In this document: positions 7,520-60,814 of the stretch, piece by piece
Layout of the letters: each line of letters begins with the position of its first letter
How positions within the stretch are numbered: position 1 is the stretch's first letter
Virus record (IMG/VR): IMGVR_UViG_3300011202_000010
Location: 114,589 to 178,588 of that record
Direction: 5' to 3' (one strand)
Origin: a virus
Taxonomy: Duplodnaviria; Heunggongvirae; Uroviricota; Caudoviricetes
DNA: 64,000 nucleotides
The notes under the pieces: generated by a model
What the model was told of the DNA's origin: nothing
What the model saw: the letters and a program-made list of their open reading frames with translations, nothing else
The model's database searches: none
Translations under genes and position numbers: made by a program

Positions 7520-8653
7520 TTATTTGTAATAACCAATTCCGTTTTCACGACACCAAATAGAAAGAACATTTGCTTCATGAGGTTTTAAAGATCTGTTAGC
7601 AAAACCTCTAGCTTGAGAAACTGTATGATAGCTACTCACTTCTACTGTTGCTACTCTTTTTTCTTCTGCATAACCCCAAGGAGTATTTGGGCGAACCTTT
7701 AACGACCAAATAGAACAACTGTTATTGATACATTTAGAACGATAACTATAAACACAGTGATGCATTTTATTGCCTTCTTCTGCTAAGGCTTTACCTTGCA
7801 AAATTTGTGTAATTGTCCAAACTACTTCTTTACCTTGCTCATCTTTACGAATATATTCTCCATTAGGAATATCAAAACCTTTCCAAGAATAACCAGAGTG
7901 CTCTTTAATACGACGAAGCTCATAGTGCCAATCTTTAACTCTTTCTAATAACGTTTTAATAGTGAAGCCTTGACCAAAAATTGAAAACTCCCTGTTTTCA
8001 TTCTTTTTACTTTCTAAGAAATCTAAAATATCATCAAGTTGTTCAATACTTTCTGGAACATTAGTAGCGAAGAAACGAGCACAATCACGCCAAAATTCGT
8101 TATTTTTTGGTTTTTTACCAAGCTTAGATCTAGCTATACGGAACGCAATACCATCACCTGCACCAGCACAAAACGCCGTAGCATAATAAATAGCTTCATT
8201 AATGCTTAATGGTTTTATACATGACATAAAAACATGAGTTTCTTTTTTAGTCATAAAGTCTTTTAGATATTCTTTATGTAATGAACCTCCAGTTCCTGCG
8301 CAAATATACCAATCATGATATTCATTTTTTGCTATTTTTTGGGAGTTTTCACCATATCTTCTCTGAGGATTTTCTTGCTTATACCAAGCTTGCTCTAAAA
8401 TTTTTGGAACCGGATATTTTACAAATAGATGCTTAACCATTTCAAGACGTTGCTTGATACGGTCTGATGAACGAGTTTTAAGTTGAAAATCACATACAGG
8501 ACGTATGCATTTTACTAAGATTTCATTAGGGAAATCATGTTCTATAGGAACATTTTCTTTTCCTTTTTGTTTAAGCTTTTTTCCATGATGAGAAAGCATT
8601 GCAAGCTCTTGCTCTGCTTTAATAATTTTTTCAGCTTTTGTTAGCTTAGACAT
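7520..8653 (-). CDS. PcfJ-like protein (tentative), 377 aa
   Basis: C-terminal MHHCVYSY... region recalls PcfJ-like domain proteins of plasmids and phages. Motif recalled from memory, not searched. Confidence 0.35.
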   Translation of the reverse strand: MSKLTKAEKIIKAEQELAMLSHHGKKLKQKGKENVPIEHDFPNEILVKCIRPVCDFQLKTRSSDRIKQRLEMVKHLFVKYPVPKILEQAWYKQENPQRRYGENSQKIAKNEYHDWYICAGTGGSLHKEYLKDFMTKKETHVFMSCIKPLSINEAIYYATAFCAGAGDGIAFRIARSKLGKKPKNNEFWRDCARFFATNVPESIEQLDDILDFLESKKNENREFSIFGQGFTIKTLLERVKDWHYELRRIKEHSGYSWKGFDIPNGEYIRKDEQGKEVVWTITQILQGKALAEEGNKMHHCVYSYRSKCINNSCSIWSLKVRPNTPWGYAEEKRVATVEVSSYHTVSQARGFANRSLKPHEANVLSIWCRENGIGYYK

Positions 8654-8733
8654 TTCTTTTCCTCAAAGTTTTTATGCTCTCATAATACTCTTTATCTCTA
8701 TAAAAAACAATCTTTTTATATAAAGATATTAGG

Positions 8734-9015
8734 TTAACTTACTGAAAAATCATGCTGTTCATCACCTACACATGTATAATGCTCATAGTAAGATGTAACA
8801 TAATCACACACTACTGGAGCACCACATTCCTCACAAATCCAGTCTGGATTACTCCTTGAAAAATCTTTCGCTAATGCTTCTTCTATCTGTTTCGCTTTAT
8901 CTTTTAAATCTTGTCCAGACAAATGAGTTTCATTTTTCAATAAAATTTTTACAGCGTTATCTAAAAATTTTTTGTTTTTAGGATTTTCATTACAATAAAT
9001 TTCTACAATATTCAT
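8734..9015 (-). CDS. Small Cys-rich hypothetical protein (93 aa)
   Basis: CEECGAPVVCDY...HYTCVGDE: four or five Cys spaced like a zinc ribbon. Confidence 0.45.
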   Translation of the reverse strand: MNIVEIYCNENPKNKKFLDNAVKILLKNETHLSGQDLKDKAKQIEEALAKDFSRSNPDWICEECGAPVVCDYVTSYYEHYTCVGDEQHDFSVS

Positions 9016-49387: not shown

Positions 49388-50308
49388 TCATAAAAATTGA
49401 CCACATGCTGATTTTATTTCTGCTCCTGATGAATGTTGGATTTTCATCTTAGGTATGAAAGTTTTTAAATCACTCACAATTTCTTTCAATTTGATGCTTT
49501 CTTTAGTGCCATTATCAGGAGCGTTATAGCGCAATATACGAAATTCTGTGGCTACATCTATATTTTTGCTTAACAAATCTTTTAGAGAGCGAATATCAGA
49601 AATATTATCATTCACATTATTGATAAACATATGATGAACAATGAAATCTACATTATTAGTTTTACACCATTCTGATATAGCACTCATCGCTTTATCTGGA
49701 GATCGTGAGTTTGGTATTAAGTTTTCTCTTGTCGTATTTGAAGCACTATGTAAAGAATAAAAAAGACGTAAAGCACTACCATTATGCTTTGGATTTAATT
49801 CTATGTTATTAAGCGTTTTATTTAGCTCAGAAAAATCTTTTTTCCATTTATTTGTTTTAGGATAAGTTGTTGCGATATCTACACCATCTAATCCTACAGC
49901 AAGTTTCTGTTCTAAAACTTGTTTAACGATTTCTTTTGTTGCTTCTTTGACTTTTTCACTATATGTTAATGGTTCACCCGACCCCATCCAACATAATTTA
50001 ATAAACTTATTTTTTATTTCTGGTGTGAGTTCAGCTTGTTTTTTAATAGCTTCCATTACATTAGATATAATTTGTTCCGTTGATAGTTCTTTATGTTCTA
50101 TATTATTGGTTGTAATATGACAAAACTTACATGACATTAAGCAACCTACACTTCCAGAAATCACTATGCTGTATTTATTGTTATCTTTATGTTGTAAATT
50201 TAAGTTTTCATCATATTGACCTGATAAGGCTAACTTGATTGATGTTTCAGCACCATTATCATGAAGGTATTTTGTTACTTTTTTATCTTGGGTTTGAATA
50301 TGTTTCAT
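49388..50308 (-). CDS. RlmN/Cfr-family radical SAM RNA methyltransferase-like protein (306 aa from MKHIQ), N-terminally short
   Basis: GGAGCA SD before the internal ATG. Radical SAM CLMSCKFC (Cx3Cx2C). C-terminal ...SACGQFL matches the RlmN/Cfr catalytic-Cys motif (AACGQL). Confidence 0.6.
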   Translation of the reverse strand: MKHIQTQDKKVTKYLHDNGAETSIKLALSGQYDENLNLQHKDNNKYSIVISGSVGCLMSCKFCHITTNNIEHKELSTEQIISNVMEAIKKQAELTPEIKNKFIKLCWMGSGEPLTYSEKVKEATKEIVKQVLEQKLAVGLDGVDIATTYPKTNKWKKDFSELNKTLNNIELNPKHNGSALRLFYSLHSASNTTRENLIPNSRSPDKAMSAISEWCKTNNVDFIVHHMFINNVNDNISDIRSLKDLLSKNIDVATEFRILRYNAPDNGTKESIKLKEIVSDLKTFIPKMKIQHSSGAEIKSACGQFL

Positions 50309-50410
50309 TGATTTGCTCCAAATATTGAGGGGGATAATATATAATAAATCGCCTGTATATATTAACAATATCTGAATGAGGCAGTGTTGATTTCGATCAA
50401 TCTTTTACAC

Positions 50411-50440
50411 AAATAAAAAAGAGGATTTCTCCTCTTTTTA
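50411..50440 (-). terminator. Intrinsic terminator
   Basis: AGAGGATTTCTCCTCT hairpin followed by TTTTAC. Confidence 0.55.
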
Positions 50441-50445
50441 CTATT

Positions 50446-50841
50446 TTAATAACGGTGTGCTAAAATGATAGAATCTAAAATTAGCTTCTTGTTATTAGAA
50501 TTTATTTTATATGCTTTATATTTCGACCATAGCCATAAAAATATACTATTATTAGCGACAACTTCTTCACCACTTGTTATTTTTAGGCCGACAGGTCTAA
50601 AAAATGAATAATTGCCAAATTTAATATGATTCCCTTTTTCATCTTCAAGAAGAAAATTAAGAGACAGTTCAAAATCTGAAATTTCCTTGATTTTAAACTC
50701 ATGCCCTACTTGAAATGTAATAACATCTATTTCTGCCGAAGGGCTTTTTACTGTTATTGGATAAATAAGATAAACCTTATCACCTACTTTGTAGTCCGTT
50801 TCTTCTACTGACCAAAATTTAATATCTTTATTAATATTCAT
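50446..50841 (-). CDS. Hypothetical protein (131 aa)
   Basis: ORF. Confidence 0.5.
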   Translation of the reverse strand: MNINKDIKFWSVEETDYKVGDKVYLIYPITVKSPSAEIDVITFQVGHEFKIKEISDFELSLNFLLEDEKGNHIKFGNYSFFRPVGLKITSGEEVVANNSIFLWLWSKYKAYKINSNNKKLILDSIILAHRY

Positions 50842-50882
50842 GGATTCTCCAATTTCTAATAAAAATTATAAATACAAAGCTC

Positions 50883-51230
50883 TTAACCAAATACACAAGG
50901 AAAATCAGGATGATTAAGTCCGGGAACTTTATCTTCTGTTAAACCAACAGCTTTAGCCAGAACAGTACAGGCATGAGCAACATCAACTTCATTAGAGGAG
51001 GTAAACTCTACCATCAACCAATCATTAGAATTACCCTGAATGAACGGTTTAGCTCCAGAACAATCATGAATTTTAAGGGCAACAAAAATCTCGGTTTTTT
51101 GTTCTTCTGTTAAGCCTTGAAACTGGATATTGGTTAACTTATCGCAATACTCAAGACGACCAAAAACAGCAGCATGAGGCTGACCAACAACAACAGCAGA
51201 AGGACGAATCAACTTTTCCATTTTTATCAC
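50883..51230 (-). CDS. Hypothetical protein (115 aa)
   Basis: ORF. Confidence 0.5.
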   Translation of the reverse strand: MIKMEKLIRPSAVVVGQPHAAVFGRLEYCDKLTNIQFQGLTEEQKTEIFVALKIHDCSGAKPFIQGNSNDWLMVEFTSSNEVDVAHACTVLAKAVGLTEDKVPGLNHPDFPCVFG

Positions 51231-51281
51231 CTATATTTATTTATTGTTGTCATTATAAAAGAAAGCTTTATCTAAATCAAG

Positions 51282-51476
51282 TTAAACTTTATGCTCTTTT
51301 ATTGAAGGGCAAAAAGCTGAAACAACAATAAAAAATGCTGCATAAATAAAACTTAGCATCGCTAATAAAAAAGATAGCATATGAGGAATAACATTTTCGG
51401 TTGGGCGAACAAAAGGCAAGTCCGTATTATACATGAAGATGGCTAGGTACATCACTGACAATAAGAAAAGCTTCAT
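51282..51476 (-). CDS. Small membrane protein (64 aa)
   Basis: Two TM helices. TTGTGC-N17-TATAAT promoter at 51505-51533. Confidence 0.45.
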   Translation of the reverse strand: MKLFLLSVMYLAIFMYNTDLPFVRPTENVIPHMLSFLLAMLSFIYAAFFIVVSAFCPSIKEHKV

Positions 51477-51504
51477 TTTATGTCTCCAAAAGGTTTATGA
51501 AGCT

Positions 51505-51533
51505 ATTATACTATGATGTTTTGTTATGCACAA
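51505..51533 (-). promoter_or_regulatory. Promoter TTGTGCAT-N-TATAAT (17-nt spacer)
   Basis: TTGTGCATAACAAAACATCATAGTATAAT; drives 51282-51476. Confidence 0.55.
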
Positions 51534-51535
51534 GT

Positions 51536-51772
51536 TTATTCGATGATGATTGAAACTCTTTCAGAATGGAATGTTAAAAGATATTGAACTCGTTTATCGT
51601 TTAGATTAAGCTCTTTACCATTTTTAACTTCTTCATAAAACTGTCCATTCATTCCGGGATGAGCTTCACCAGCATCATAACCAAATTGTTCATAATAATC
51701 TTCGTTTGAACGAATAAAACTTTCAATTTGTTCAAGTAATTCTTTTTTGTTTGCGCGTAACTTTATACTCAT
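51536..51772 (-). CDS. Hypothetical protein (78 aa)
   Basis: ORF. Confidence 0.45.
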   Translation of the reverse strand: MSIKLRANKKELLEQIESFIRSNEDYYEQFGYDAGEAHPGMNGQFYEEVKNGKELNLNDKRVQYLLTFHSERVSIIIE

Positions 51773-51788
51773 TTTTGTTATCCTTATT

Positions 51789-51822
51789 ATTAAAAAAGCT
51801 ACCCGTAAGTAGCTCTATATTT
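51789..51822. terminator. Intrinsic terminator
   Basis: AGCTACCCGTAAGTAGCT hairpin flanked by A and T runs. Confidence 0.55.
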
Positions 51823-51825
51823 TTA

Positions 51826-52077
51826 TTATTCTCTTCTTCCGATAAACAATTCTACACGACCATAGTAAGGTTTATCTTTGAAATAATCAGAAGTATAACT
51901 TACCACTTCAAATGTTTCATCGTAAGCACCTTCTTTCGATGGTTTGACCATCATATCGACAACCTCAATATTACCACCTTGATCGTAATGCCCTGATCCA
52001 CTAGTATGGCTAATACAAGTAACAACAGCTTCTTGAGGCTGTGTCTTCAACCATTCAATCAATTCCGCAACTGTCAT
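51826..52077 (-). CDS. Hypothetical protein (83 aa from MTVAELIEWLK)
   Basis: GAGGTAA SD before the internal ATG. A promoter at 52112-52140 places the TSS downstream of the longer ORF's start. Confidence 0.5.
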   Translation of the reverse strand: MTVAELIEWLKTQPQEAVVTCISHTSGSGHYDQGGNIEVVDMMVKPSKEGAYDETFEVVSYTSDYFKDKPYYGRVELFIGRRE

Positions 52078-52111
52078 TTTGATTACCTCACTATGCAAAT
52101 TTTATAAGATC

Positions 52112-52140
52112 AGTATAGCAGGAATAGATATAATGCACAA
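52112..52140 (-). promoter_or_regulatory. Promoter TTGTGCAT-N-TATACT (17-nt spacer)
   Basis: TTGTGCATTATATCTATTCCTGCTATACT; drives 51826-52077. Confidence 0.5.
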
Positions 52141-52154
52141 CTTATTGTTATATA

Positions 52155-52295
52155 TTATTTTGTTAATTTTGCTAAAGCATTATCACGACGAACTTGGGCG
52201 CGAATTTGATCTCCATAGCTTTTTGAAGATTTCACATCTTCATCATATTGATCAAGGATTTCTTTTTTTGTTAAAACTGTTTTATTTTCTGACAT
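52155..52295 (-). CDS. Small protein (46 aa, MSENKTVLTKKEILDQYDEDVKSSKSYGDQIRAQVRRDNALAKLTK)
   Basis: GAGGAAATAAAT-ATG. Paralogue of 52362-52538 (SYG..R..RRD.AL.KL). Not in the ORF track. Confidence 0.45.
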   Translation of the reverse strand: MSENKTVLTKKEILDQYDEDVKSSKSYGDQIRAQVRRDNALAKLTK

Positions 52296-52361
52296 ATTTA
52301 TTTCCTCATTAAATTGTTTAAGTATGGTTATGGTGCATTATTTATATATTAGTACAATATT

Positions 52362-52538
52362 TTATTTAGAGCGTTGGTAAGATGGAAGCTTTTTCAATGC
52401 TTCATCTCTACGATGTTTTGCCCAATGTTCTTCACCATAAGATTTTGCCTTAACTGATTCTTCCATATATTTATTATGGATTTTTCTTTCTTCTGGTGTG
52501 TATGGAGCACGATAATCTCCGGTAGCATCATAAAACAT
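52362..52538 (-). CDS. Small protein (58 aa, MFYDATGDYRAPYTPEERKIHNKYMEESVKAKSYGEEHWAKHRRDEALKKLPSYQRSK)
   Basis: Paralogue of 52155-52295. Not in the ORF track. Confidence 0.4.
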   Translation of the reverse strand: MFYDATGDYRAPYTPEERKIHNKYMEESVKAKSYGEEHWAKHRRDEALKKLPSYQRSK

Positions 52539-52550
52539 ATATACCCCTCT

Positions 52551-52596
52551 GATTTATTCCAATGATTTATTCCAATGATTTATTCCAATGATTTTT
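52551..52596. repeat. 13-bp tandem direct repeat (GATTTATTCCAAT x3.5)
   Basis: Read directly. Lies in the 5' leader and promoter region of sORF 52362-52538. Confidence 0.8.
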
Positions 52597-52679
52597 CTCA
52601 TTTTATCAAAATTTATTGCTTATATTTTTACCTTAAAGCAATTTTTTATTGATTATATAATTTTATGCCATCAGTTACA

Positions 52680-52710
52680 ATAAAAAAGCCTCCGAAGAGG
52701 CTTCTATTAT
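52680..52710. terminator. Intrinsic terminator
   Basis: AGCCTCCGAAGAGGCT hairpin with an A-run before and T-rich sequence after. Confidence 0.55.
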
Positions 52711-54593
52711 TTATATTTTTTATACAACTCTATATGCTGACTTAAAAAATCATCTTGATACATGATTTCCACATCATTTCCTTTATCTACCAAAATAGGT
52801 GTCATGAATCCCATAACATTAGCTAATCCCAAGCTGCTTACACGCTCTAATACTTCTTTATGCACTAATGGGTTAACTTTAGTTCCATATGCTTCTACAA
52901 GCTTTTTAGCCGCTTCAAAATCGCCTTCTGATTTAATACGCTGAATCTCAGATAAAAGAACTCCAACAAGTGTTCTTACATATTCAAGATCGTTAACTTC
53001 AATATAAAAGCGACCATCTTTTGTAACCATTGCCATTTTATCTTTTTCAGCATGATCTAACAGCCATGTTGAAATAATTTGACGATTCCTAAAATGCGCT
53101 TGCGTTAGATCATTCCCTAACTTGATTCTTCTTAGCTGACCAATAGCACCATTTGTAAAATATGCGATATATTTAGCTAGAGCTGCATCTTTTACATCCA
53201 CATCTTGAGCAAACACACCGATTTCTTTCAATTTCTCATCAGGAATATAATAAAGTGCTACTAGATCTGCTCGACATTCTTCAATTACAGAATAATAGGT
53301 TGAAAGAACATCGGTATTAACACCATCTAACACTTTGCCCGACCCATGACCCGCAATTTCATGTAGATCTGTATGAAGAACACCTGTTTCATTACCATAA
53401 CGCTTAATTAAAGCTTGATACTTATCAAGATAAAGCGCCTTCATTAATGGAACATCATAAGTATTCCTTGAAGAATCAACATTAGCTAACGTAACTGATT
53501 TAGATCCATGTTTTTTGCGAATCCAATCACTGTTTGGTAAATTAATGCCAAGAGGTAATACAGGAGATGGATCACCTGCCATTGAAATAACATTAATAGA
53601 ACTTGCCGATAAACCAACAGCTTTATCTTTTTTAAATTTACTATCAAATGGCAAGTTATTTTCAAACCATTGAATATTTTCAATAATCTTTTCAACTTTT
53701 GCCGTTTGTGATGGATCTTTAAATGCAACTATGCTTTCAAAATTACAAGCAATACCTAAAGGATCTTTATAGGACTCAATCAAGCCATTTACAAAATAAA
53801 TAGAACTTTCTTTATCTTTTGTCCATGCTACACAATGTTTATCAAAATCAGCAGCATCACCCGTTTTATAAAATTGAATTAGTGTTTCAATTGATTCTTT
53901 TTGTTGTTCATTCTCACTATAGAAAAGTGCTTTTTCAAGCTCTTTAATAATTTTTCCAACATAATGAGCATAAAGACCAACAGAACTAATTACTTGACGA
54001 TCAATTGAACCATCACTATTTTTTACGAGTCTTTCATTAAATCCATAAGGAGGAATTTCATCACCCTCTACTTTTGGATAGACCTCCTCACGGAACTGCT
54101 TCACTTCATCAGTTGTTAGACCTACATAAAAGTTAGCACCAGATTCTTTAACAACATCGACACCATCTTTTTGAACTGTTCTATAGTGAGGCATTAGATC
54201 TTTGCTAAATAGAATTTCTTCTACAGCTTTAGCAGCAGTAAAAGTTTCAATTGTATCTTTGATTTTCCTAAGTTCTTCCAACTGAATTGGAAAATCAAGA
54301 CGCTCACCTGTTGTTGTATGGTAAACACCACCATGAGCAAAAAATGTGAAAAGAGTATCTCGCAACTGTTCCCATACTTTTTCTTCATGATTAACTTCTT
54401 CAAATAGAAAAATCAGATTATCAAGTAGACGAATATTATAAGCTGACGCTTGGTGAAGAGAAATAACCTTACCCCACATACCTGCTTCTGATAGATGATA
54501 TACCAGCTTTTTCTTTTTCAAATCCATATCAGAAAAACCTGTAGTATCTAGTTTTACAATTGCAATATCATTTAAACGTTCTGAATAAGTCAT
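52707..54593 (-). CDS. M49-family zinc metallopeptidase (dipeptidyl-peptidase III-like), 628 aa
   Basis: HEIAGHGSG (the HExxGH variant characteristic of DPP III) and downstream EECRADL (the EECRAE second zinc-ligand motif). Confidence 0.65.
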   Translation of the reverse strand: MTYSERLNDIAIVKLDTTGFSDMDLKKKKLVYHLSEAGMWGKVISLHQASAYNIRLLDNLIFLFEEVNHEEKVWEQLRDTLFTFFAHGGVYHTTTGERLDFPIQLEELRKIKDTIETFTAAKAVEEILFSKDLMPHYRTVQKDGVDVVKESGANFYVGLTTDEVKQFREEVYPKVEGDEIPPYGFNERLVKNSDGSIDRQVISSVGLYAHYVGKIIKELEKALFYSENEQQKESIETLIQFYKTGDAADFDKHCVAWTKDKESSIYFVNGLIESYKDPLGIACNFESIVAFKDPSQTAKVEKIIENIQWFENNLPFDSKFKKDKAVGLSASSINVISMAGDPSPVLPLGINLPNSDWIRKKHGSKSVTLANVDSSRNTYDVPLMKALYLDKYQALIKRYGNETGVLHTDLHEIAGHGSGKVLDGVNTDVLSTYYSVIEECRADLVALYYIPDEKLKEIGVFAQDVDVKDAALAKYIAYFTNGAIGQLRRIKLGNDLTQAHFRNRQIISTWLLDHAEKDKMAMVTKDGRFYIEVNDLEYVRTLVGVLLSEIQRIKSEGDFEAAKKLVEAYGTKVNPLVHKEVLERVSSLGLANVMGFMTPILVDKGNDVEIMYQDDFLSQHIELYKKYK

Positions 54594-54729
54594 ACTTTCT
54601 CCTTTAAAATTTAGTTAAATATACCATAAAGACCTTTTAATGAAAACCTTTTTTTATTCATATATTATGTTGATTTTCATTACTAATTTTATCTATAATG
54701 TAGATATCTTTCATTTCATAAGGAAACAT

Positions 54730-55098
54730 ATGTCTAGACCTTATAGAGCAGTAAGTTTTAGAGGCTTAAAAATTGTTGCCTATGGCAATAAACCTATGTC
54801 TATTAATGACAGTCCGATGTTTGTTGACGGGGAATATGTTGACAATAATTTAAATATCTATGACTCATATGTAGATAGGCATGGTTCAAGTAGAGTAAGA
54901 TGTTATAGCTCTTGGTCTCAAGCAGAATCTGTAGCAGATTCATGGAATGATGCCTATGAAGAAAACGAAAGGGAAGAACGCATTAAACAAGAGCAGCGAA
55001 GAAAAGCTTATGAAGCAGCAAAAGCTGAAAGAAAACGAAAAATCAAAGCTTTTATTTCAAAGATTAGGAATATATTTAAGAATAAAAGAGCGGCCTAA
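54730..55098 (+). CDS. Hypothetical protein (122 aa from MSRPYRAV), basic KR-rich C-terminus
   Basis: AAGGAAACAT-ATG SD. Terminator at 55084-55110. Confidence 0.5.
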   Translation: MSRPYRAVSFRGLKIVAYGNKPMSINDSPMFVDGEYVDNNLNIYDSYVDRHGSSRVRCYSSWSQAESVADSWNDAYEENEREERIKQEQRRKAYEAAKAERKRKIKAFISKIRNIFKNKRAA

Positions 55099-55110
55099 CC
55101 GCTCTTTTAT
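55084..55110. terminator. Bidirectional intrinsic terminator
   Basis: AGAGCGGCCTAACCGCTCT hairpin. Confidence 0.6.
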
Positions 55111-55114
55111 TAAT

Positions 55115-55297
55115 TTAATAATTATCTATATCTATCCATTCATCAATTAAAATTTGAGTTGTATTACTATCAAATCCTTTTCCTGACATAGAATATTGGG
55201 GACTACTTACCAAATCTAGATCTATATTTTCATCTTGTTTTTTAGATTTTATGTTGCAGGACGAACCTGCCTCACACTCTCCCCATAAATCAATCAT
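55115..55297 (-). CDS. Small acidic hypothetical protein (60 aa)
   Basis: ORF only. Confidence 0.3.
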   Translation of the reverse strand: MIDLWGECEAGSSCNIKSKKQDENIDLDLVSSPQYSMSGKGFDSNTTQILIDEWIDIDNY

Positions 55298-55422
55298 ATG
55301 AATCTCCTATTTTAAGATTATAGATATTTTATCTTTATAGCTTTTTATAATCAACAAAAATATTTAAAATTTGCCTAACAACTTTTGTATGTATATATTA
55401 AAAACAAAAACGGAGGGATTTT

Positions 55423-56376
55423 ATGTTTAATCTTACAGATATATTACAAATCATGGATAATCGTAGCAGAGAGTTTGAAGGTCTTAGAGAAGATCAGGTA
55501 TTTATGTTTGATGCTTCTGCAGAAGAAATTATTAACAGGATGAAAAAGAGAACATTATTTGGATTAAAGAAACCAGCACTATTGGATTTTAACGTAAAAA
55601 CCAATAGTGGATTTACTCCTTTTATGAAAACAGATGAACTTGAAAAAATTAAACTTTTTATTGAGAATGATGCCAATATCAACTCACTTGATATGAATGG
55701 TGAAAATGCTTTATTTCATCATACCCACAGTATTGATAATACTTCTTATTTATTAGAAAAAGGTATAAATGTTAATCAAAGTAATAAGAATAGAAAAAAT
55801 ATTTTAGATAAACATCACTTTACTTTTGATGATGATGAAAGAATAGCTGAACTTTATGTAAAATACGGAATAGATATTCATAGAGTTAATTCTAAAACTC
55901 AAAGAAATGCACTATTTACATTAGATTATAAAAAAGGCTTATTTCTGGTTAAACATGGTATAAATATTCATCAAGTAGATAAGCATGGAAGAAATATGCT
56001 TTTTTATTTAGACAGCAATGATAAAGATGGAAGTCTAGAATTAATGAATACTCTCATTGAAAAAGGTATAAATGTTAATCAGGTAGATGAATGTGGACGA
56101 AATGCTTTATTTGGTGCTGGTGCTGATTTAGAAAAAGCTAAATTACTTATAGCAGCAGGTATAAATATTCATCAGATTGATAACGAAGGTAAAAGTGCTC
56201 TAGAATATACGTATTGGGATGATAATGAAAGATTGTTATTTTCACATGGCATAAAAGATAGAGAATATGATGAAACGTTTACTAAAGCTAAAATGGCTCC
56301 ATTTATGAGAGGTCATAGGTCTGGTAATTATGAGAAGCTTTTTCATCAAGAACCCAAACTTAGTTTTAACTATTAA
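55423..56376 (+). CDS. Ankyrin-repeat protein (317 aa, about 6 repeats)
   Basis: ACGGAGGG SD. Repeated G-x-NALF-x(n)-LIEKGINVNQ units, e.g. GRNALFGAGADLEKAKLLIAAGINIHQIDNEGKSALEY. Confidence 0.6.
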   Translation: MFNLTDILQIMDNRSREFEGLREDQVFMFDASAEEIINRMKKRTLFGLKKPALLDFNVKTNSGFTPFMKTDELEKIKLFIENDANINSLDMNGENALFHHTHSIDNTSYLLEKGINVNQSNKNRKNILDKHHFTFDDDERIAELYVKYGIDIHRVNSKTQRNALFTLDYKKGLFLVKHGINIHQVDKHGRNMLFYLDSNDKDGSLELMNTLIEKGINVNQVDECGRNALFGAGADLEKAKLLIAAGINIHQIDNEGKSALEYTYWDDNERLLFSHGIKDREYDETFTKAKMAPFMRGHRSGNYEKLFHQEPKLSFNY

Positions 56377-56381
56377 ATAAA

Positions 56382-56457
56382 TGGTGCATTCGGTAGGATT
56401 TGAACCTACGACACCCGGATCTTCAATCCAGTGCTCTACCAACTGAGCTACAAATGC
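56382..56457 (-). tRNA. tRNA-Phe (anticodon GAA), 76 nt with encoded CCA
   Basis: Cloverleaf read by hand: acceptor GCATTTG/CGAATGC, anticodon stem CTGGA/TCCGG with loop TTGAAGA, T-arm GTAGGTTCAAATCCTAC. Confidence 0.8.
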
Positions 56458-56591
56458 ATTAGGCTTACTAGGTCAGGTGTTGTATCGGCCCACCTCTTAA
56501 ACGATAATAGGAAAGTCTGGTTTTTCTCCAAACGTGCTATTACCTTTTACGCCCACTCTTAGTCATCGGGCGCGACCTAATAAGTTTCATG

Positions 56592-56667
56592 TGGTTTCTG
56601 TAGGACTTGAACCTACACTCATAGCGGAACCCTGCCGCTACTGCTCTACCAATTGAGCCAAGAAACC
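56592..56667 (-). tRNA. Atypical tRNA or tRNA-like; nominal anticodon GGG (Pro) but non-canonical loop
   Basis: Perfect acceptor GGTTTCT/AGAAACC and T-arm GTAGGTTCAAGTCCTAC. The anticodon hairpin AGCGG-CAGGGTT-CCGCT has A33 and U37. Three extra nt between the D and anticodon stems. No encoded CCA. Confidence 0.45.
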
Positions 56668-56742
56668 AAAATATCTTATAACATCTTCTTTGTTAACGAG
56701 ATAAAGATAATAACAATATTTTTTATGATAAACAACTCTTTT

Positions 56743-57303
56743 TTAATAAAAAGAGAAAGAAATCGTTGAGCTTACACCAGCAGAATTACATGCTGTAGCA
56801 GCATTCGCTATATTCCAATCTATATTCGATATATCGCTTTTCACTATGCTTCCGCCAATATTGATTATTGACATACTTGGAGCAACTGCAGCAACAAGTT
56901 TTACGCAAGCATCTTGAGGGACATTCGCATAACCTATATTAAATACAACCTTTCCATATGAAGCATAGTTAGTTGCTGATAGAGTTACTTTACCTTTAAA
57001 ACCATTAACAACATCTACTACAGAGCTTCCACTCTTCACTAACATATTATCAGGAAATATTTGTGCATTGATTCCTACTGTATTGTTAACCGTTGTTATA
57101 TCTGTTGTTGCTGAATATAATGATAACAAGCCTCCCCTTATTGTAGCTATGTTTTTAGATTCAGCATCCACTATTTGAGAGGTTCTTACTTTGGGATAAA
57201 CTATAAAAGCGGCAACAATTAAAGCAGCTATTATACCTAAAACAAGCAATAACTCTAATAATGAAAAACCCTTTCTTCTTTTTATTTCTGAAATCTTACT
57301 CAT
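56743..57303 (-). CDS. Type IV pilin-like protein (186 aa)
   Basis: MSKISEIKRRKGFSLLELLLVLGIIAALIVAAFIVYPKV. Paralogue of 23255-23821. Confidence 0.8.
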   Translation of the reverse strand: MSKISEIKRRKGFSLLELLLVLGIIAALIVAAFIVYPKVRTSQIVDAESKNIATIRGGLLSLYSATTDITTVNNTVGINAQIFPDNMLVKSGSSVVDVVNGFKGKVTLSATNYASYGKVVFNIGYANVPQDACVKLVAAVAPSMSIINIGGSIVKSDISNIDWNIANAATACNSAGVSSTISFSFY

Positions 57304-57526
57304 ATTATTTAGCGCTCCTTATTATTAATTTTAGTAACAGTTAAGTTACAAAGTTACAACAATAAGGAAATAATAAAAGTTTTATGCCAACAAAAAATTG
57401 TTTCTGGATGTTTTTTGACATTTTTTGATCAAAAATAAATTTTATAGATCATTTCACCTTTTATATATGTATACTTAAAATACATTTTTATTTGTGGTAT
57501 AATGTATGTTTTATTGAGAGGCCAAA

Positions 57527-57766
57527 ATGAGAAATATACAAATCAAAAAACAAGATTTTAAACATACATCAATTTTACATTATCTGTTAGATAAAGGTGT
57601 TATTGTTAATTTTCATTGTCTCGATGGATTTTGTGGAACTTGCCATAGCAAATTAATTTCTGGTGAGGTTTTATTCATTAAAGACGAAATTGGTTTTAAA
57701 GCTAAAGAAGAGTTTTTACTTTGTTGTGCCGTTCCTAAAACAGATATTGAGATATCTATTTACTAA
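57527..57766 (+). CDS. YfaE-like [2Fe-2S] ferredoxin (79 aa)
   Basis: CLDGFCGTC (CxxGxCGxC), ...LCCAVPKTDIEISIY. Collinear with E. coli YfaE (CREGYCGSC ... PCCCRAKGDIEIEM). Confidence 0.65.
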   Translation: MRNIQIKKQDFKHTSILHYLLDKGVIVNFHCLDGFCGTCHSKLISGEVLFIKDEIGFKAKEEFLLCCAVPKTDIEISIY

Positions 57767-57770
57767 TTTT

Positions 57771-57845
57771 TGGTGTCCCGTGCAGGAATCGAACCTGCAA
57801 CTACTTCTTAGGAGGAAGTCGTTATATCCATTTAACTAACAGGAC
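57771..57845 (-). tRNA. tRNA-Arg (anticodon CCU), 75 nt with CCA
   Basis: Acceptor GTCCTGT/ACGGGAC, anticodon stem ACTTC/GAAGT with loop CTCCTAA, T-arm GCAGGTTCGATTCCTGC. Confidence 0.7.
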
Positions 57846-57877
57846 ATTAGCACCAATCTCTTGATGCTATTTTGTTT

Positions 57878-58198
57878 TTATTTGATAAATACACACTCTG
57901 ATTTATCAACTTTAGCAAAGATCATGGATGTAGCTTCTGGAACCATTGTTAACTCAACCAGATCGCCCATAACATCAAGAACAATAACGGACTTGAAATC
58001 AACCGCATTAATATTGCTACTTAAGTTGATTTGAGATAAAACATCAGTAATCTTCTGACTTTCTTCCCTTAGATCGTCATCATTACTATCATTCGCATCT
58101 TCTGTTCGAGAAACATATGCCGATTGAACAGCCGTTGTAAAAAAGTTTTTAAAAAAATGAGTAAGTTTTTCGTTATGAATTAATTTCTGAACCATCAT
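57878..58198 (-). CDS. Hypothetical protein (106 aa)
   Basis: ORF overlapping the upstream gene by 4 nt. Confidence 0.5.
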   Translation of the reverse strand: MMVQKLIHNEKLTHFFKNFFTTAVQSAYVSRTEDANDSNDDDLREESQKITDVLSQINLSSNINAVDFKSVIVLDVMGDLVELTMVPEATSMIFAKVDKSECVFIK

Positions 58199-58590
58199 GC
58201 TTTACTCCCACTTTTAGTTTGAGATTCTTTCCATTCTTTATATTGTAACTCAATGATGCTAAGACCACGCTCAAAAGTATCTTTCATATGATTAATAACT
58301 TCTTCTGGAATATCTGCCTTTTTCATACTGGCAATAAAAGAATCGTTATGCTTTTTGATTTCAATAATATCATCACTTGAAGCCATAATGCTTTGACTTA
58401 CTTCAAAAGATTCTGTTTTATTAGTGTTATAGAAATTCATAACTTTAACAGCCATCCAAGACATAAAGCCAGCATGGTTATAACCGATATTACGACATAA
58501 CATACCTGAAACATAATCATCTTTTCTACGTTTAATCTGATCAACAACATTTGATTCAACGTTAATGCTTGTGATTTCAATAGTATTCAT
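58195..58590 (-). CDS. Hypothetical protein (131 aa)
   Basis: ORF. TTGTGC-N17-TATAAT promoter at 58622-58650. Confidence 0.55.
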   Translation of the reverse strand: MNTIEITSINVESNVVDQIKRRKDDYVSGMLCRNIGYNHAGFMSWMAVKVMNFYNTNKTESFEVSQSIMASSDDIIEIKKHNDSFIASMKKADIPEEVINHMKDTFERGLSIIELQYKEWKESQTKSGSKA

Positions 58591-58621
58591 AATAAAGGTT
58601 CTCTCATTAAGTTAGGTTGTC

Positions 58622-58650
58622 ATTATAACAATTTATTCAGTTATGCACAA
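58622..58650 (-). promoter_or_regulatory. Promoter TTGTGCAT-N-TATAAT (17-nt spacer, TGT-extended -10)
   Basis: TTGTGCATAACTGAATAAATTGTTATAATGACAAC; drives 58195-58590. Confidence 0.55.
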
Positions 58651-58656
58651 GCTTTT

Positions 58657-59049
58657 TTAGATAATTTTGTTCTGACGTAGTTCCTTGAACACGTTGTTAA
58701 CCATTTCTTGTTTGTTTTTGAGTTCTTTATTATAGTATTTTTCATAATCGCTTTCTTCATGACCAACCAGACCGATTTTTTCTAATGAAGAAAGATAATT
58801 ACTACAGTATCCTAATACTTTTTTAAAGGTGATAGAATCTTGCTTAGAAAAAGAAATATCTTCACCATTGACTTTTTTGATTAGATTTTCAAAAAGAGTT
58901 CCTGTTTTTTCGGATTTTTCATTTGCTTTACGAATTTCTTCTTTAGCAAGATCTTCAGGGAAAATAACAGATACATCAATCTTATGCTTTTCAATGTTAT
59001 GAGCATAAAGAGTTTTCATCAGATTTAAGCCTTCAATAACATTTTTCAT
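58657..59049 (-). CDS. Hypothetical protein (130 aa from MKNVIEGL)
   Basis: Upstream cassette TATAAT ... AAAAAAAGAGGTTTTTAAA-ATG is identical to the one before 59097-59498. Confidence 0.5.
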   Translation of the reverse strand: MKNVIEGLNLMKTLYAHNIEKHKIDVSVIFPEDLAKEEIRKANEKSEKTGTLFENLIKKVNGEDISFSKQDSITFKKVLGYCSNYLSSLEKIGLVGHEESDYEKYYNKELKNKQEMVNNVFKELRQNKII

Positions 59050-59096
59050 TTTAAAAACCTCTTTTTTTAGAGCCTTTATTATACAACAAAGCATTC

Positions 59097-59498
59097 TTAA
59101 TGTGTAGAGAAAGGTACTTTTTTTATAGAAATAGTATGAATTGTATTAGAAAAGAAGCCAGCCTGATAAAATTTAAAGGCTATTTCTGGTGAAATAATTT
59201 TACTATATGAACCAGCATTACTGTAATGACACTTAAAATACTTTTTCAAGTTCTTCTCTAAATGTTTACATTGATCTCTAATCATCATTTCTTTAGACAT
59301 TTGATGGGAAGAGAGAAATACCATTAAGATGGTAGTTAAAATATGACCAATTTTACCAATAAAAGAGGCTTTTTTGAAAAGTCGTTTTTTGAAAGCTTTG
59401 TCTTCAGCATAAGATTGATTTTCTCTAATAATACACATAAGAAATTCTTTCGCTACGAGGTTGTTCTGGTGAACTTGTTGAATGGTCAGAATACTCAT
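59097..59498 (-). CDS. Hypothetical protein (133 aa), one predicted TM helix
   Basis: Same promoter/RBS cassette (TGCTATAATGACAAC ... AAAAAAAGAGGTTTTTAAA-ATG). Confidence 0.5.
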   Translation of the reverse strand: MSILTIQQVHQNNLVAKEFLMCIIRENQSYAEDKAFKKRLFKKASFIGKIGHILTTILMVFLSSHQMSKEMMIRDQCKHLEKNLKKYFKCHYSNAGSYSKIISPEIAFKFYQAGFFSNTIHTISIKKVPFSTH

Positions 59499-59589
59499 TT
59501 TAAAAACCTCTTTTTTTACTTAATGTTGTCATTATAGCAAAAAGCCTTCTTTGAAGAAAGCTTTTTGTTTAGAGATTTTTACTTAGTTT

Positions 59590-59799
59590 TTAATGCATCA
59601 CCATCATACCGACTGTATGGCAAATACAAGTACAAAGTTTTATCTTTTGAAGATTTTTTCTTATTACTTTATTTTGAGGTTCATCAACTAAAACTTTATA
59701 TTTACCTTCACCATATATTTCATCAAGCCCCTCTTTATTTAAACTTCCATCTACGTTTAGATACTTTCTGTAACATAAATCACAACATGCCATTACCAT
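59590..59799 (-). CDS. Small Cys-rich protein (69 aa); paralogue of 59810-60148
   Basis: MVMACCDLCYRKYLN...CTCICHTVGMMVMH: 7 Cys plus His, shared N- and C-terminal Cys motifs. Confidence 0.55.
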   Translation of the reverse strand: MVMACCDLCYRKYLNVDGSLNKEGLDEIYGEGKYKVLVDEPQNKVIRKNLQKIKLCTCICHTVGMMVMH

Positions 59800-59809
59800 T
59801 ATAATCTCC

Positions 59810-60148
59810 TTAATGAAGGACTGTCATGCCAATTATATGACAATCGCAACCACATAATTCTTGTTCTTTATTATCTATTTTAACTTTATATTTATACTCA
59901 AACTCTTTATCAAGTCCTTTTATATTATGGATATATTTACTTCCATTAGGTTTTACACCTCCTTCAACAAAAGAGTAATTATTTTCTCCATATATTTGAT
60001 CCATTATTGCTTTCTTATTGTAAGGTTTTTTCTCAATGATTAATTGATATTTATTTTTACCAAATATTTCGTCTAAACATTTTTTTGATACTTCGCCATC
60101 TTTATTTAAATATTTTTTATAACATAAGTTACAACAAGCCATTACCAT
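59810..60148 (-). CDS. Small Cys-rich protein (112 aa); paralogue of 59590-59799
   Basis: MVMACCNLCYKKYLN...CGCDCHIIGMTVLH. Confidence 0.55.
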   Translation of the reverse strand: MVMACCNLCYKKYLNKDGEVSKKCLDEIFGKNKYQLIIEKKPYNKKAIMDQIYGENNYSFVEGGVKPNGSKYIHNIKGLDKEFEYKYKVKIDNKEQELCGCDCHIIGMTVLH

Positions 60149-60195
60149 GATTATCTCCTCTTTTTGTTTATTATATCTTTAAAAAAATATAAAAA

Positions 60196-60222
60196 CAAAA
60201 AAAGAACCATCTCTGGTTCTTT
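60196..60222 (-). terminator. Intrinsic terminator
   Basis: AGAACCATCTCTGGTTCT hairpin flanked by A and T runs. Confidence 0.55.
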
Positions 60223-60225
60223 TTG

Positions 60226-60300
60226 TGGTGCCTAATGCAGGATTCGAACCCGCGACAAAGAATTTTAGGGACTCCCGTTCTACCGCTGAACTAATTAGGC
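60226..60300 (-). tRNA. tRNA with anticodon CUA (amber-reading/suppressor-type), class I, 75 nt with CCA
   Basis: Perfect acceptor GCCTAAT/ATTAGGC, D-arm GTTC-AGCGGTA-GAAC, anticodon stem GGAGT/ATTCT (two G-U pairs) with loop CCCTAAA (C33 is unusual), T-arm GCGGGTTCGAATCCTGC. Confidence 0.55.
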
Positions 60301-60381
60301 TTTTTAATTAACACCAGTGATCATACCTCAACAGGCGGTACTCAACACATGTCCCCATCCAGAGCCGCACTGGTATTAATT

Positions 60382-60457
60382 TGGTGGCCCTTGTTGGATT
60401 TGAACCAACGACCAATCGATTATGAGTCGACTGCTCTAACCACTGAGCTAAGGGGCC
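60382..60457 (-). tRNA. tRNA-Met (anticodon CAU), 76 nt with CCA
   Basis: Acceptor GGCCCCT/AAGGGCC (one C-A mismatch), anticodon stem GTCGA/TCGAT with loop CTCATAA, T-arm GTTGGTTCAAATCCAAC. Confidence 0.7.
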
Positions 60458-60460
60458 ATT

Positions 60461-60557
60461 CGGCGTACATAGGACTTGAACCTACAATCATCCGGTGGAT
60501 TAACAAGGTAATGAAACCTATACCGTTGGAATCGACTTCTTAAACAGTCGTGATACG
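60461..60557 (-). ncRNA. tRNA-like element, unresolved (about 97 nt)
   Basis: Canonical T-arm GTAGGTTCAAGTCCTAT and a 6-bp acceptor pairing (GCGTAT/GTACGC), but no clean D/anticodon fold and about 10 nt too long for a standard tRNA. Confidence 0.3.
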
Positions 60558-60559
60558 CA

Positions 60560-60646
60560 TGGTGCCTGAAGTGGGATTCGAACCCACAAGCCCTATATGG
60601 GCGGGAGATTTTAAGTCTCCTGTGTATACCATTCCACCATTCAGGC
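60560..60646 (-). tRNA. tRNA-Leu (anticodon UAA), class II with long variable arm, 87 nt with CCA
   Basis: Acceptor GCCTGAA/TTCAGGC, anticodon stem GGAGA/TCTCC with loop CTTAAAA, variable hairpin GCCC-ATATA-GGGC, T-arm GTGGGTTCGAATCCCAC. Confidence 0.75.
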
Positions 60647-60737
60647 ATAAAAGAGTGGGAGAACACTCTTTAATTAAATGAAAACTTTTAGCAGTACTTT
60701 TATTCACAATCACAACAACGCATATAGGAGACTATGC

Positions 60738-60814
60738 TGGTGGCCCTTGCTGGACTTGAACCAGCGACCAATCGATTATGAGTCGACTGCTCTGACCAAC
60801 TGAGCTAAAGGGCC
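60738..60814 (-). tRNA. tRNA-Met (anticodon CAU), second copy, 77 nt with CCA
   Basis: Acceptor GGCCCTT/AAGGGCC perfect. Anticodon arm identical to the 60382-60457 copy. T-arm GCTGGTTCAAGTCCAGC. Confidence 0.75.

Follow-up and report, generated by a model that had tools for sequence, protein, structure and literature searches.

Does a phage-borne gene that carries the signature motifs of RlmN and Cfr encode one of these enzymes, or something else? The question is raised by a radical S-adenosylmethionine (SAM) gene on the minus strand, at 49388..50308, of a 64,000 nt stretch of DNA (here called the window) that corresponds to positions 114,589 to 178,588 of IMG/VR virus record IMGVR_UViG_3300011202_000010. 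The encoded protein is a true homologue of RlmN and Cfr, with the fold of the class A radical SAM methyl synthases, and is a member of neither family. Its most unusual feature, overlooked in a preliminary description of the locus, is that the second mechanistic cysteine is absent, not only from this protein but family-wide.

RlmN and Cfr are the textbook cases of methylation via an S-methylcysteine radical, and two cysteines define the chemistry. To our knowledge, no class A radical SAM methylase characterised so far can do without a cysteine, C105 in Cfr, that resolves the covalent enzyme–RNA intermediate. In RlmN, the methyl group first goes to C355, where attack by a 5'-deoxyadenosyl radical yields a thiomethylene radical; once this has added to adenine, C118 resolves the covalent adduct (PMC5130265). 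RlmN with the C118A substitution makes no 2-methyladenosine (m2A) and stays crosslinked to RNA, showing that C118 is needed for methylation (PMC5130265; titles of PDB entries 5hr6 and 5hr7). A family that keeps the methyl-carrier cysteine and never the resolving one is a natural test of whether the adduct can be released by other means, or is released at all, and the locus is of interest mainly because a whole family lacks a residue on which both characterised enzymes depend. The features of the gene and its product are as follows.

49388..50308, minus: gene for the RlmN/Cfr-like radical SAM protein, recognised by its open reading frame (ORF), its RlmN/Cfr homology and purifying selection relative to contig L003
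50416..50439, minus: terminator-like hairpin closing the gene upstream, found in a consensus scan
50316..50319, minus: GGAG ribosome-binding site 7 nt 5' of the ATG, read from the sequence
50162..50308, minus: residues 1-49, all-beta N-terminal extension in place of the helical N-terminal domain (DSSP of the AlphaFold2 model)
50162..50164, minus: Val49, at the position of the resolving cysteine (RlmN C118, Cfr C105)
50120..50143, minus: CLMSCKFC, residues 56-63, the CX3CX2C motif for the [4Fe-4S] cluster and SAM (C56, C60 and C63)
49991..49993, minus: Cys106, in the strand before MGSGEP, candidate substitute second cysteine
49394..49411, minus: SACGQF, residues 300-305, C-terminal loop with Cys302

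The two cysteine motifs had been read as RlmN/Cfr-type from the sequence, and homology to these enzymes in fact extends along the whole protein, in both sequence and fold. When 119 full-length relatives were aligned with Escherichia coli RlmN (b2517) and a Staphylococcus aureus Cfr sequence that is 100% identical to annotated cfr genes, the cluster triad aligned to RlmN C125/C129/C132 and Cfr C112/C116/C119. Cys302, in the SACGQF loop just before the final residue, aligned to RlmN C355 (AACGQL) and Cfr C338, and its S-methylation is predicted on this basis. All 119 family members have the triad and the C355 equivalent. C56, C60, C63, C302, G303, F305, G109, G111, S185, N233, D234 and N262 are invariant in a 46-sequence alignment, and the GGE-type SAM motif is kept as MGSGEP.

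The sole Pfam match is the generic Radical_SAM domain. In NCBIfam, the RlmN model (TIGR00048) ranks first, with residues 23-305 aligned to positions 81-342 of 355 (E 3.6e-19), and is followed by four Cfr/RlmN-type models, unrelated radical SAM families appearing only at E ~1e-5 or weaker. HMMER searches of PDB sequences returned RlmN (1.6e-7) and Cfr (4e-6), with both the cluster region and the C-terminal ACGQ aligned. An AlphaFold2 model built on 46 relatives (mean predicted local distance difference test score 92.4, predicted template modelling score 0.91) contains the partial TIM-barrel radical SAM core of RlmN, and in a Foldseek search of PDB its best matches were RlmN structures (6fz6, 5hr7, 3rf9 and 4pl1; 7e-16 to 1e-11, template modelling (TM) scores ~0.65-0.68), ahead of Cfr (3e-8) and then PFL-AE (PFL-activase) and viperin (2e-7 or weaker). 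The possibility that the protein belongs to a different radical SAM subfamily and that its CGQ is coincidental was checked, and all three comparisons placed it with RlmN/Cfr. As the homology spans the protein, the C-terminal CGQ is itself homologous. Viperin, PFL-AE, QueE and MiaB-type enzymes were rejected as candidates, with E values of 1e-4 to 1e-3, far under the cutoffs, and fold matches more than five orders of magnitude weaker than RlmN.

The score against the RlmN equivalog model is 68.9 bits, where the cutoff is 290, and those against the Cfr models are 55.9 against a cutoff of 530 (NF000424), 49.1 against 550 (TIGR04432) and 48.0 against 468 (NF011024). Compared with RlmN (E. coli b2517; PDB 3RF9, 3RFA and 5HR7), the window protein matches the partial-barrel fold at Foldseek E values of 1e-13 to 1e-14 (TM ~0.68) and shares the CX3CX2C, MGxGEP, SLH, VND and (Y/W)N strand motifs and the (A/S)CGQ(L/F) loop cysteine, but is only ~18% identical overall, and its family carries its own insert of ~25 residues (KW..F..LN...NP). 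With Cfr (S. aureus plasmid cfr; PDB 9P0P), it shares the superfamily motifs and a strand motif, LRYN, that resembles the IRYN of Cfr, but the fold match is weaker than that to RlmN. As the scores are far under the cutoffs and both the helical N-terminal domain and the second mechanistic cysteine are gone, we conclude that the protein belongs to neither family.

The N-terminus and the missing second cysteine

In the AlphaFold2 model, DSSP assigns no helix to the stretch that precedes residue 64, only six short strands, and the alignment to the RlmN model begins only at position 81 of the latter. A shortened N-terminal region had been noted previously, and the reduction is larger than was estimated: the cluster motif begins with a cysteine at residue 56, compared with residue 125 in RlmN and 112 in Cfr, making the N-terminus ~56-69 residues shorter. 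The earlier length of about 306 aa stands. The placement of the triad about 75 residues from the N-terminus does not, as the first cysteine would be residue 76 only if translation began at a TTG at 50368, to which a mechanical ORF list extends the frame. The ATG at 50308 is preferred because it follows the GGAG at 7 nt, because the hairpin at 50439..50416 precedes it and because homologues share the same starting Met in alignments. From there, the gene runs for 306 codons to a TGA at 49390..49388, and given the hairpin of the upstream gene it is apparently transcribed as a separate unit. A related metagenomic contig carries a copy with 93% DNA identity and 95% protein identity. The ratio of non-synonymous to synonymous substitution rates (dN/dS) relative to the 93%-identical gene in L003 is 0.12, and the gene is therefore under purifying selection and functional.

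Seven residues before the first cluster cysteine, the gapless HMMER alignment of RlmN TLCVSSQVGC with SIVISGSVGC places Val49 opposite C118. None of the 119 aligned family members has Cys in this column, and 61% have Phe. Position -7 was also read in a wider set of 235 relatives in which the cluster motif can be recognised; it holds Phe in 158, Val in 33, Ile in 23, Leu in seven, Tyr in six, Cys in four, Met in three and Ser in one. The four with Cys all lie outside the family, three being Tunturi_5-like and the fourth, P0222, standing apart in the tree.

Cysteines elsewhere might substitute, and Cys106 is the sole plausible one in the window protein; this position, which aligns to RlmN V174, is Cys in 82/119 members. 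A Cys two residues past the invariant RYN asparagine (RYNxC) occurs in 64/119, with His there in some members and Pro264 in the window protein. Cys is also found at -4 from the cluster in 23/119, including the protein of Klebsiella phage 05F01, and in the N-terminal beta extension in 46/119. Either the C106-type or the RYNxC cysteine is present in 115 of the 119, leaving four with neither. We treat these recurring extra cysteines as a lead, not a result. As a separate observation, three further cysteines (alignment columns 132, 228 and 440, in the N-terminal beta extension, the strand before the GGE motif and the RYNxC loop) co-occur in 21/119 members, the window protein not among them, and could form an auxiliary metal site in one sub-clade.

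Family-invariant residues are H16, K45, C56/60/63, D141, D144, Y184, H225, R257, R260, N262 and C302. Five of them (D141, D144, Y184, H225 and R257) are foreign to RlmN and Cfr, which indicates that the active site has been remodelled. At the active-site strands, RlmN KRR is replaced by LDG and an RlmN Thr by D144.

Phage distribution and gene neighbourhoods

Among 1.84 billion representative proteins, the family has 145 representatives at E<=1e-30. The window protein shows the family traits of full-length similarity and a length of ~300-350 aa, and shares 95% identity with P0001. The score of P0001 against the family profile A1, built from an alignment that includes the window protein, is 420 bits. 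IMG/VR contains 25 family loci, on contigs of 5-543 kb; 95%-identical copies are on contigs of up to 539 kb and an 84% identical relative is on one of 541 kb. Only two matches were found among 185,579 species-representative genomes, both on contigs of metagenome-assembled genomes (54 and 197 kb). No family member was found in the 72,556 plasmids of PLSDB, where the best match, at 27% identity, was an ordinary rlmN. The phage background proposed for the gene is supported by these contigs, by the lack of plasmid members and by the sole member in a cultured phage, gp104 of Klebsiella phage 05F01 (BBK09218.1, 'radical SAM protein'); the family is phage-borne. Gp104 is 42.9% identical to the window protein over its full length and has the same architecture, again with no Cys at the C118 position. 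It differs in having an extra Cys at -4 (LSCSHGC) and a C-terminal SSCGMF, and its neighbours are genes for an ADP-ribosylation protein and an anaerobic ribonucleotide reductase rather than tRNAs. Longer relatives (P0181, P0197, P0208 and P0211) were considered as domain fusions and rejected, as their N-terminal extensions look like mis-called starts; P0197 has a 110-aa C-terminal tail.

When positions 40000-60000 of the window were used to query 50,697 phage records, no DNA match was found, so the phage is new at the DNA level. The window is collinear with metagenomic contigs at 92-98% identity. This collinearity, the protein copies on contigs of up to 541 kb and a tRNA island identify it, on sequence grounds, as a piece of a very large phage. 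Most window ORFs are orphans. Several strongly match PHROG families of unknown function (E 1e-63 to 1e-69), one of them being ~30% identical in tblastn to proteins of cultured phages, jumbo phages included.

A second phage clade resembles the first. The profile of PHROG 27142 ('Fe-S-cluster redox domain-containing') matches residues 46-306 at positions 41-299 of 300 (E 3.6e-24), and its members include 201phi2-1 gp434, Psa21 gp398, CcrPW gp289 and proteins of Phabio, CcrColossus and Brevundimonas phages. These phage-borne proteins of ~290-310 aa also have a short N-terminus, have lost the C118 equivalent (Tyr), keep ASCG(T/M)F and are often encoded beside tRNA arrays. They are only 20-24% identical to the window protein, however, form a separate clade and have Asn at the C106 position and NFMARGEP where the window-protein family has CWMGxGEP. 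In a structure search of BFVD, a COG0820 phage protein and 201phi2-1 gp434 were the top matches (TM 0.74-0.75), so that among viral proteins the jumbo-phage clade is nearest in fold. A PHROG 27142-type relative is encoded by at least 86 IMG/VR stretches, the longest contig measuring 465 kb. A further group, comprising Tunturiibacter phage Tunturi_5 gp170, Vibrio phage 166E36-1 gp0171 and P0247, is likewise phage-borne and N-terminally short with a C-terminal CG(Q/M), but keeps Cys at the C118 position and stands apart from the window-protein family; its members are probably conventional methyl synthases.

The phylogenetic comparison that the preliminary description had proposed was made as a neighbour-joining tree (277 columns, 100 bootstraps, a small sample of bacterial RlmN and Cfr). 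The window-protein family splits from RlmN, Cfr and the other phage clades with 85% bootstrap support and does not fall within the clade that unites RlmN, Cfr and the Vibrio phage 166E36-1 protein (99%). The Tunturi-like and jumbo clades are each supported at 100%. With so simple a method and so small a sample, the tree shows separateness and not the order of events.

No study of the family was found in a literature search on phage RlmN-like enzymes. Existing labels range from 'radical SAM protein' to 'adenine C2-methylase RlmN', the Psa21 copy being annotated RlmN. Names such as 'rRNA large subunit methyltransferase N' or RlmN are over-specific for these phage proteins. Members available in culturable phages are 05F01 gp104 and the Pseudomonas jumbo-phage genes.

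In several independent lineages the gene has tRNA-related neighbours. Two features of the window itself serve as context.

56382..60814, minus: phage tRNA island with seven tRNAs, one with a CUA anticodon, 6 kb from the gene (context only)
57527..57766, plus: 79-aa [2Fe-2S] ferredoxin-like ORF (CLDGFCGTC...C) within the island, recognised by a PF00111 match to its L003 orthologue

Across loci, tRNAs lie within 6 kb of the gene in 10/27 for the window-protein family and 22/80 for the jumbo clade. In several mutually divergent lineages (35-45% identity), the gene is inside a tRNA array. A tRNA ends 11-15 nt before the radical SAM ORF in L017 and L019, there are tRNAs on both sides of the gene in L012, L013, L018, L024, L081 and L110, and in several loci of the 201phi2-1/Psa21-like group an array of five to eight tRNAs ends ~450 nt upstream. 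Genes for tRNA repair recur as well: RtcB is encoded 1 kb downstream in the Psa21 lineage, a CCA-adding enzyme 2.5-3 kb downstream in CcrPW and Gurke and again near L033, and RlaP-type RNA-repair nucleotidyltransferases near L025/L029, L108 and L120. A YqeY-like gene is directly upstream in L025/L029. The tRNA array beside the gene in L024, a 141 kb IMG/VR phage contig, also includes a transfer-messenger RNA-like gene (8534..8929; ARAGORN).

Five of the seven tRNAs in the window island have A37 (Arg-CCU, two Met, Leu-UAA and the CUA suppressor), and tRNA-Phe(GAA) has G37. The A37 kinds normally carry derivatives of N6-threonylcarbamoyladenosine or N6-isopentenyladenosine at this position and not m2A, and are not among the kinds known to be methylated by E. 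coli RlmN. The CUA tRNA (60226..60300, minus) is of amber-suppressor type and was labelled 'Pyl' by ARAGORN. Another tRNA (56591..56667, minus) is odd in having A33; it is read as Pro-GGG in the window, and in the 96%-identical contig L003 as having a 4-base 'aggg' anticodon. That the ferredoxin-like ORF supplies electrons to the radical SAM enzyme is speculation.

Proposed reaction and alternatives

We lean, by a modest degree, towards a phage-specific minimal RlmN-type methyl synthase that would apply S-methyl-C302 radical chemistry to a nucleobase, probably in tRNA, and release the adduct non-canonically. One SAM would methylate C302 and a second would be cleaved at the [4Fe-4S] cluster. 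The 5'-deoxyadenosyl radical would take a hydrogen from S-methyl-C302, and the thiomethylene radical would add to an sp2 carbon of the nucleobase. The covalent adduct would then have to be resolved by a different residue, for which C106 is the candidate in the window protein and Cys at -4 or in the RYNxC loop may serve in other members. H225, Y184, D141 and D144, all absent from RlmN, are further candidates. The substrate would be RNA, most probably tRNA of the phage or its host, because the gene lies in or beside tRNA arrays or RtcB, RlaP or CCA-adding enzyme genes in several independent lineages. Loss of the helical N-terminal domain implies that recognition would differ in mode from that of RlmN or require a smaller element. 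With such an enzyme, the equipment of large phages for tRNA supply and tRNA repair would include a candidate RNA modifier, and this may be relevant to the tuning or protection of tRNAs by phages.

Several observations weigh against such a synthase. The enzymatic activity of the whole family is predicted from homology. No universal replacement cysteine was found among the 119 members, the candidate-cysteine patterns follow sub-clades, and a few extra cysteines are expected by chance. A substrate other than RNA could also account for the altered charges along the active-site strands. All-against-all ORF clustering in 30 loci found no conserved partner gene common across lineages; the commonest neighbour occurs in eight loci of two lineages, and the single copy with a Pfam match has homing-endonuclease (GIY-YIG/NUMOD3) motifs. 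In around two-thirds of loci the nearest tRNA is more than 6 kb away or absent, and accessory genes of any kind may tend to accumulate at tRNA arrays. The proximity is several-fold above chance if the background rate, which was estimated rather than measured, is right (in a genome of 300 kb, an array plus 12 kb occupies ~6-7%). A control with another window protein (PHROG 10079) gave only nine loci, mostly on smaller phages, too few for a baseline. The tRNAs in the window itself are not of the type that RlmN uses. The general idea of a tRNA substrate is plausible and draws circumstantial support from neighbourhoods in other phages; the earlier pairing of the enzyme with A37 in the island 6 kb away is not supported by that island.

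The nearest curated family and the best fold match are both RlmN, and some databases label relatives accordingly, as would be expected if the gene were an orthologue of housekeeping RlmN that makes m2A at both 23S A2503 and tRNA A37 and boosts or replaces the host activity. We consider this unlikely, given the score far below the equivalog cutoff, the missing N-terminal domain, the position of the family apart from the RlmN and Cfr clade and the family-wide loss of the C118 equivalent, which m2A formation requires (PMC5130265). The preliminary description had also raised a mobile Cfr-like enzyme that would produce 8-methyladenosine at A2503 and confer resistance to phenicols, lincosamides, oxazolidinones, pleuromutilins and streptogramin A. 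For this there are only the superfamily motifs and the Cfr-like LRYN strand, set against scores about a tenth of the Cfr cutoffs, the lack of a C105 equivalent, a position outside the Cfr clade and carriers that are large lytic-type phage genomes, not plasmids, transposons or resistance elements. It is extremely improbable, and a false alarm over a mobile Cfr resistance gene is removed.

In a further alternative, an RlmN scaffold might act on a non-RNA substrate such as a base in phage DNA, a nucleotide in free form or a protein, perhaps with no transfer of a methyl group, and this we regard as doubtful while giving it real weight. The loss of the RNA-binding N-terminal domain, the basic-to-acidic changes near the active site (KRR to LDG, and D144), the new invariant H225 and Y184 and the presence of DNA-metabolism genes (Dam, uracil-DNA glycosylase and anaerobic ribonucleotide reductase) among the neighbours all fit it. 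C302 is strictly kept, however, and its sole known role is as the S-methyl carrier in nucleobase methylation; tRNA and RNA-repair neighbours recur in both clades, and no DNA-hypermodification gene cluster is conserved alongside in the 30 clustered loci. Alternatively, the protein could be a natural single-turnover crosslinker that becomes joined to a specific host RNA, either tRNA or rRNA, by a C302-CH2-adenine bridge, with the effect of inactivating or marking that RNA in the infected cell. RlmN C118A does this in vivo and in vitro (PMC5130265; titles of PDB 5hr6 and 5hr7), two phage clades have hydrophobic residues (F/V/I/L/Y) in place of the resolving cysteine, and no replacement is universal. 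Such a reaction would be stoichiometric and costly, and the presence of another Cys at one of two recurring sites in 115/119 members fits a relocated resolving residue. We rate it very unlikely. For the two clades together, it is rather unlikely that the absence of the resolving cysteine marks either a new completion route (a relocated Cys, a His, Tyr or Asp general base, or an external thiol) or a natural C118A-like RNA trap; were the trap real, phages would have a novel type of weapon or marker aimed at the translation apparatus. The non-canonically completed methyl synthase is the reading we retain.

Other features of the window

Pfam searches with the immediate neighbours of the gene (48723..49301, 50446..50841, 50883..51230 and others) gave no matches. 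Directly upstream is an indel hot spot, where window positions 50535..50858 correspond to 8399..9773 of L003. L003 has an IS605 OrfB/TnpB (Cas12f-like) gene at this point; in the window its place is taken by a portion of an orphan ORF of 131 aa (50446..50841).

Three paralogous type IVb pilin-like genes (47241..47786, plus; 48128..48691, plus; 56743..57303, minus) each encode a prepilin N-terminal methylation motif and PilS/Bundlin domains, with two of the three bordering the region beside the radical SAM gene. Tandem genes at 43821..45431 and 45448..47043, both on the plus strand, encode membrane proteins of ~530 aa. In their L003 counterparts PF14264 (Glucos_trans_II) is found, a hint that a surface polymer is glucosylated by phage-encoded enzymes. 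Genes for a 628-aa Peptidase_M49 (dipeptidyl-peptidase III-like) protein (52707..54593, minus) and an ankyrin-repeat protein (55423..56376, plus), both unusual phage cargo, are located in the interval that separates the radical SAM gene from the tRNA island. The product of 7520..8653 (minus), one of the few window ORFs with a family match, has a C-terminal PcfJ-like domain (PF14284; PHROG 3169).

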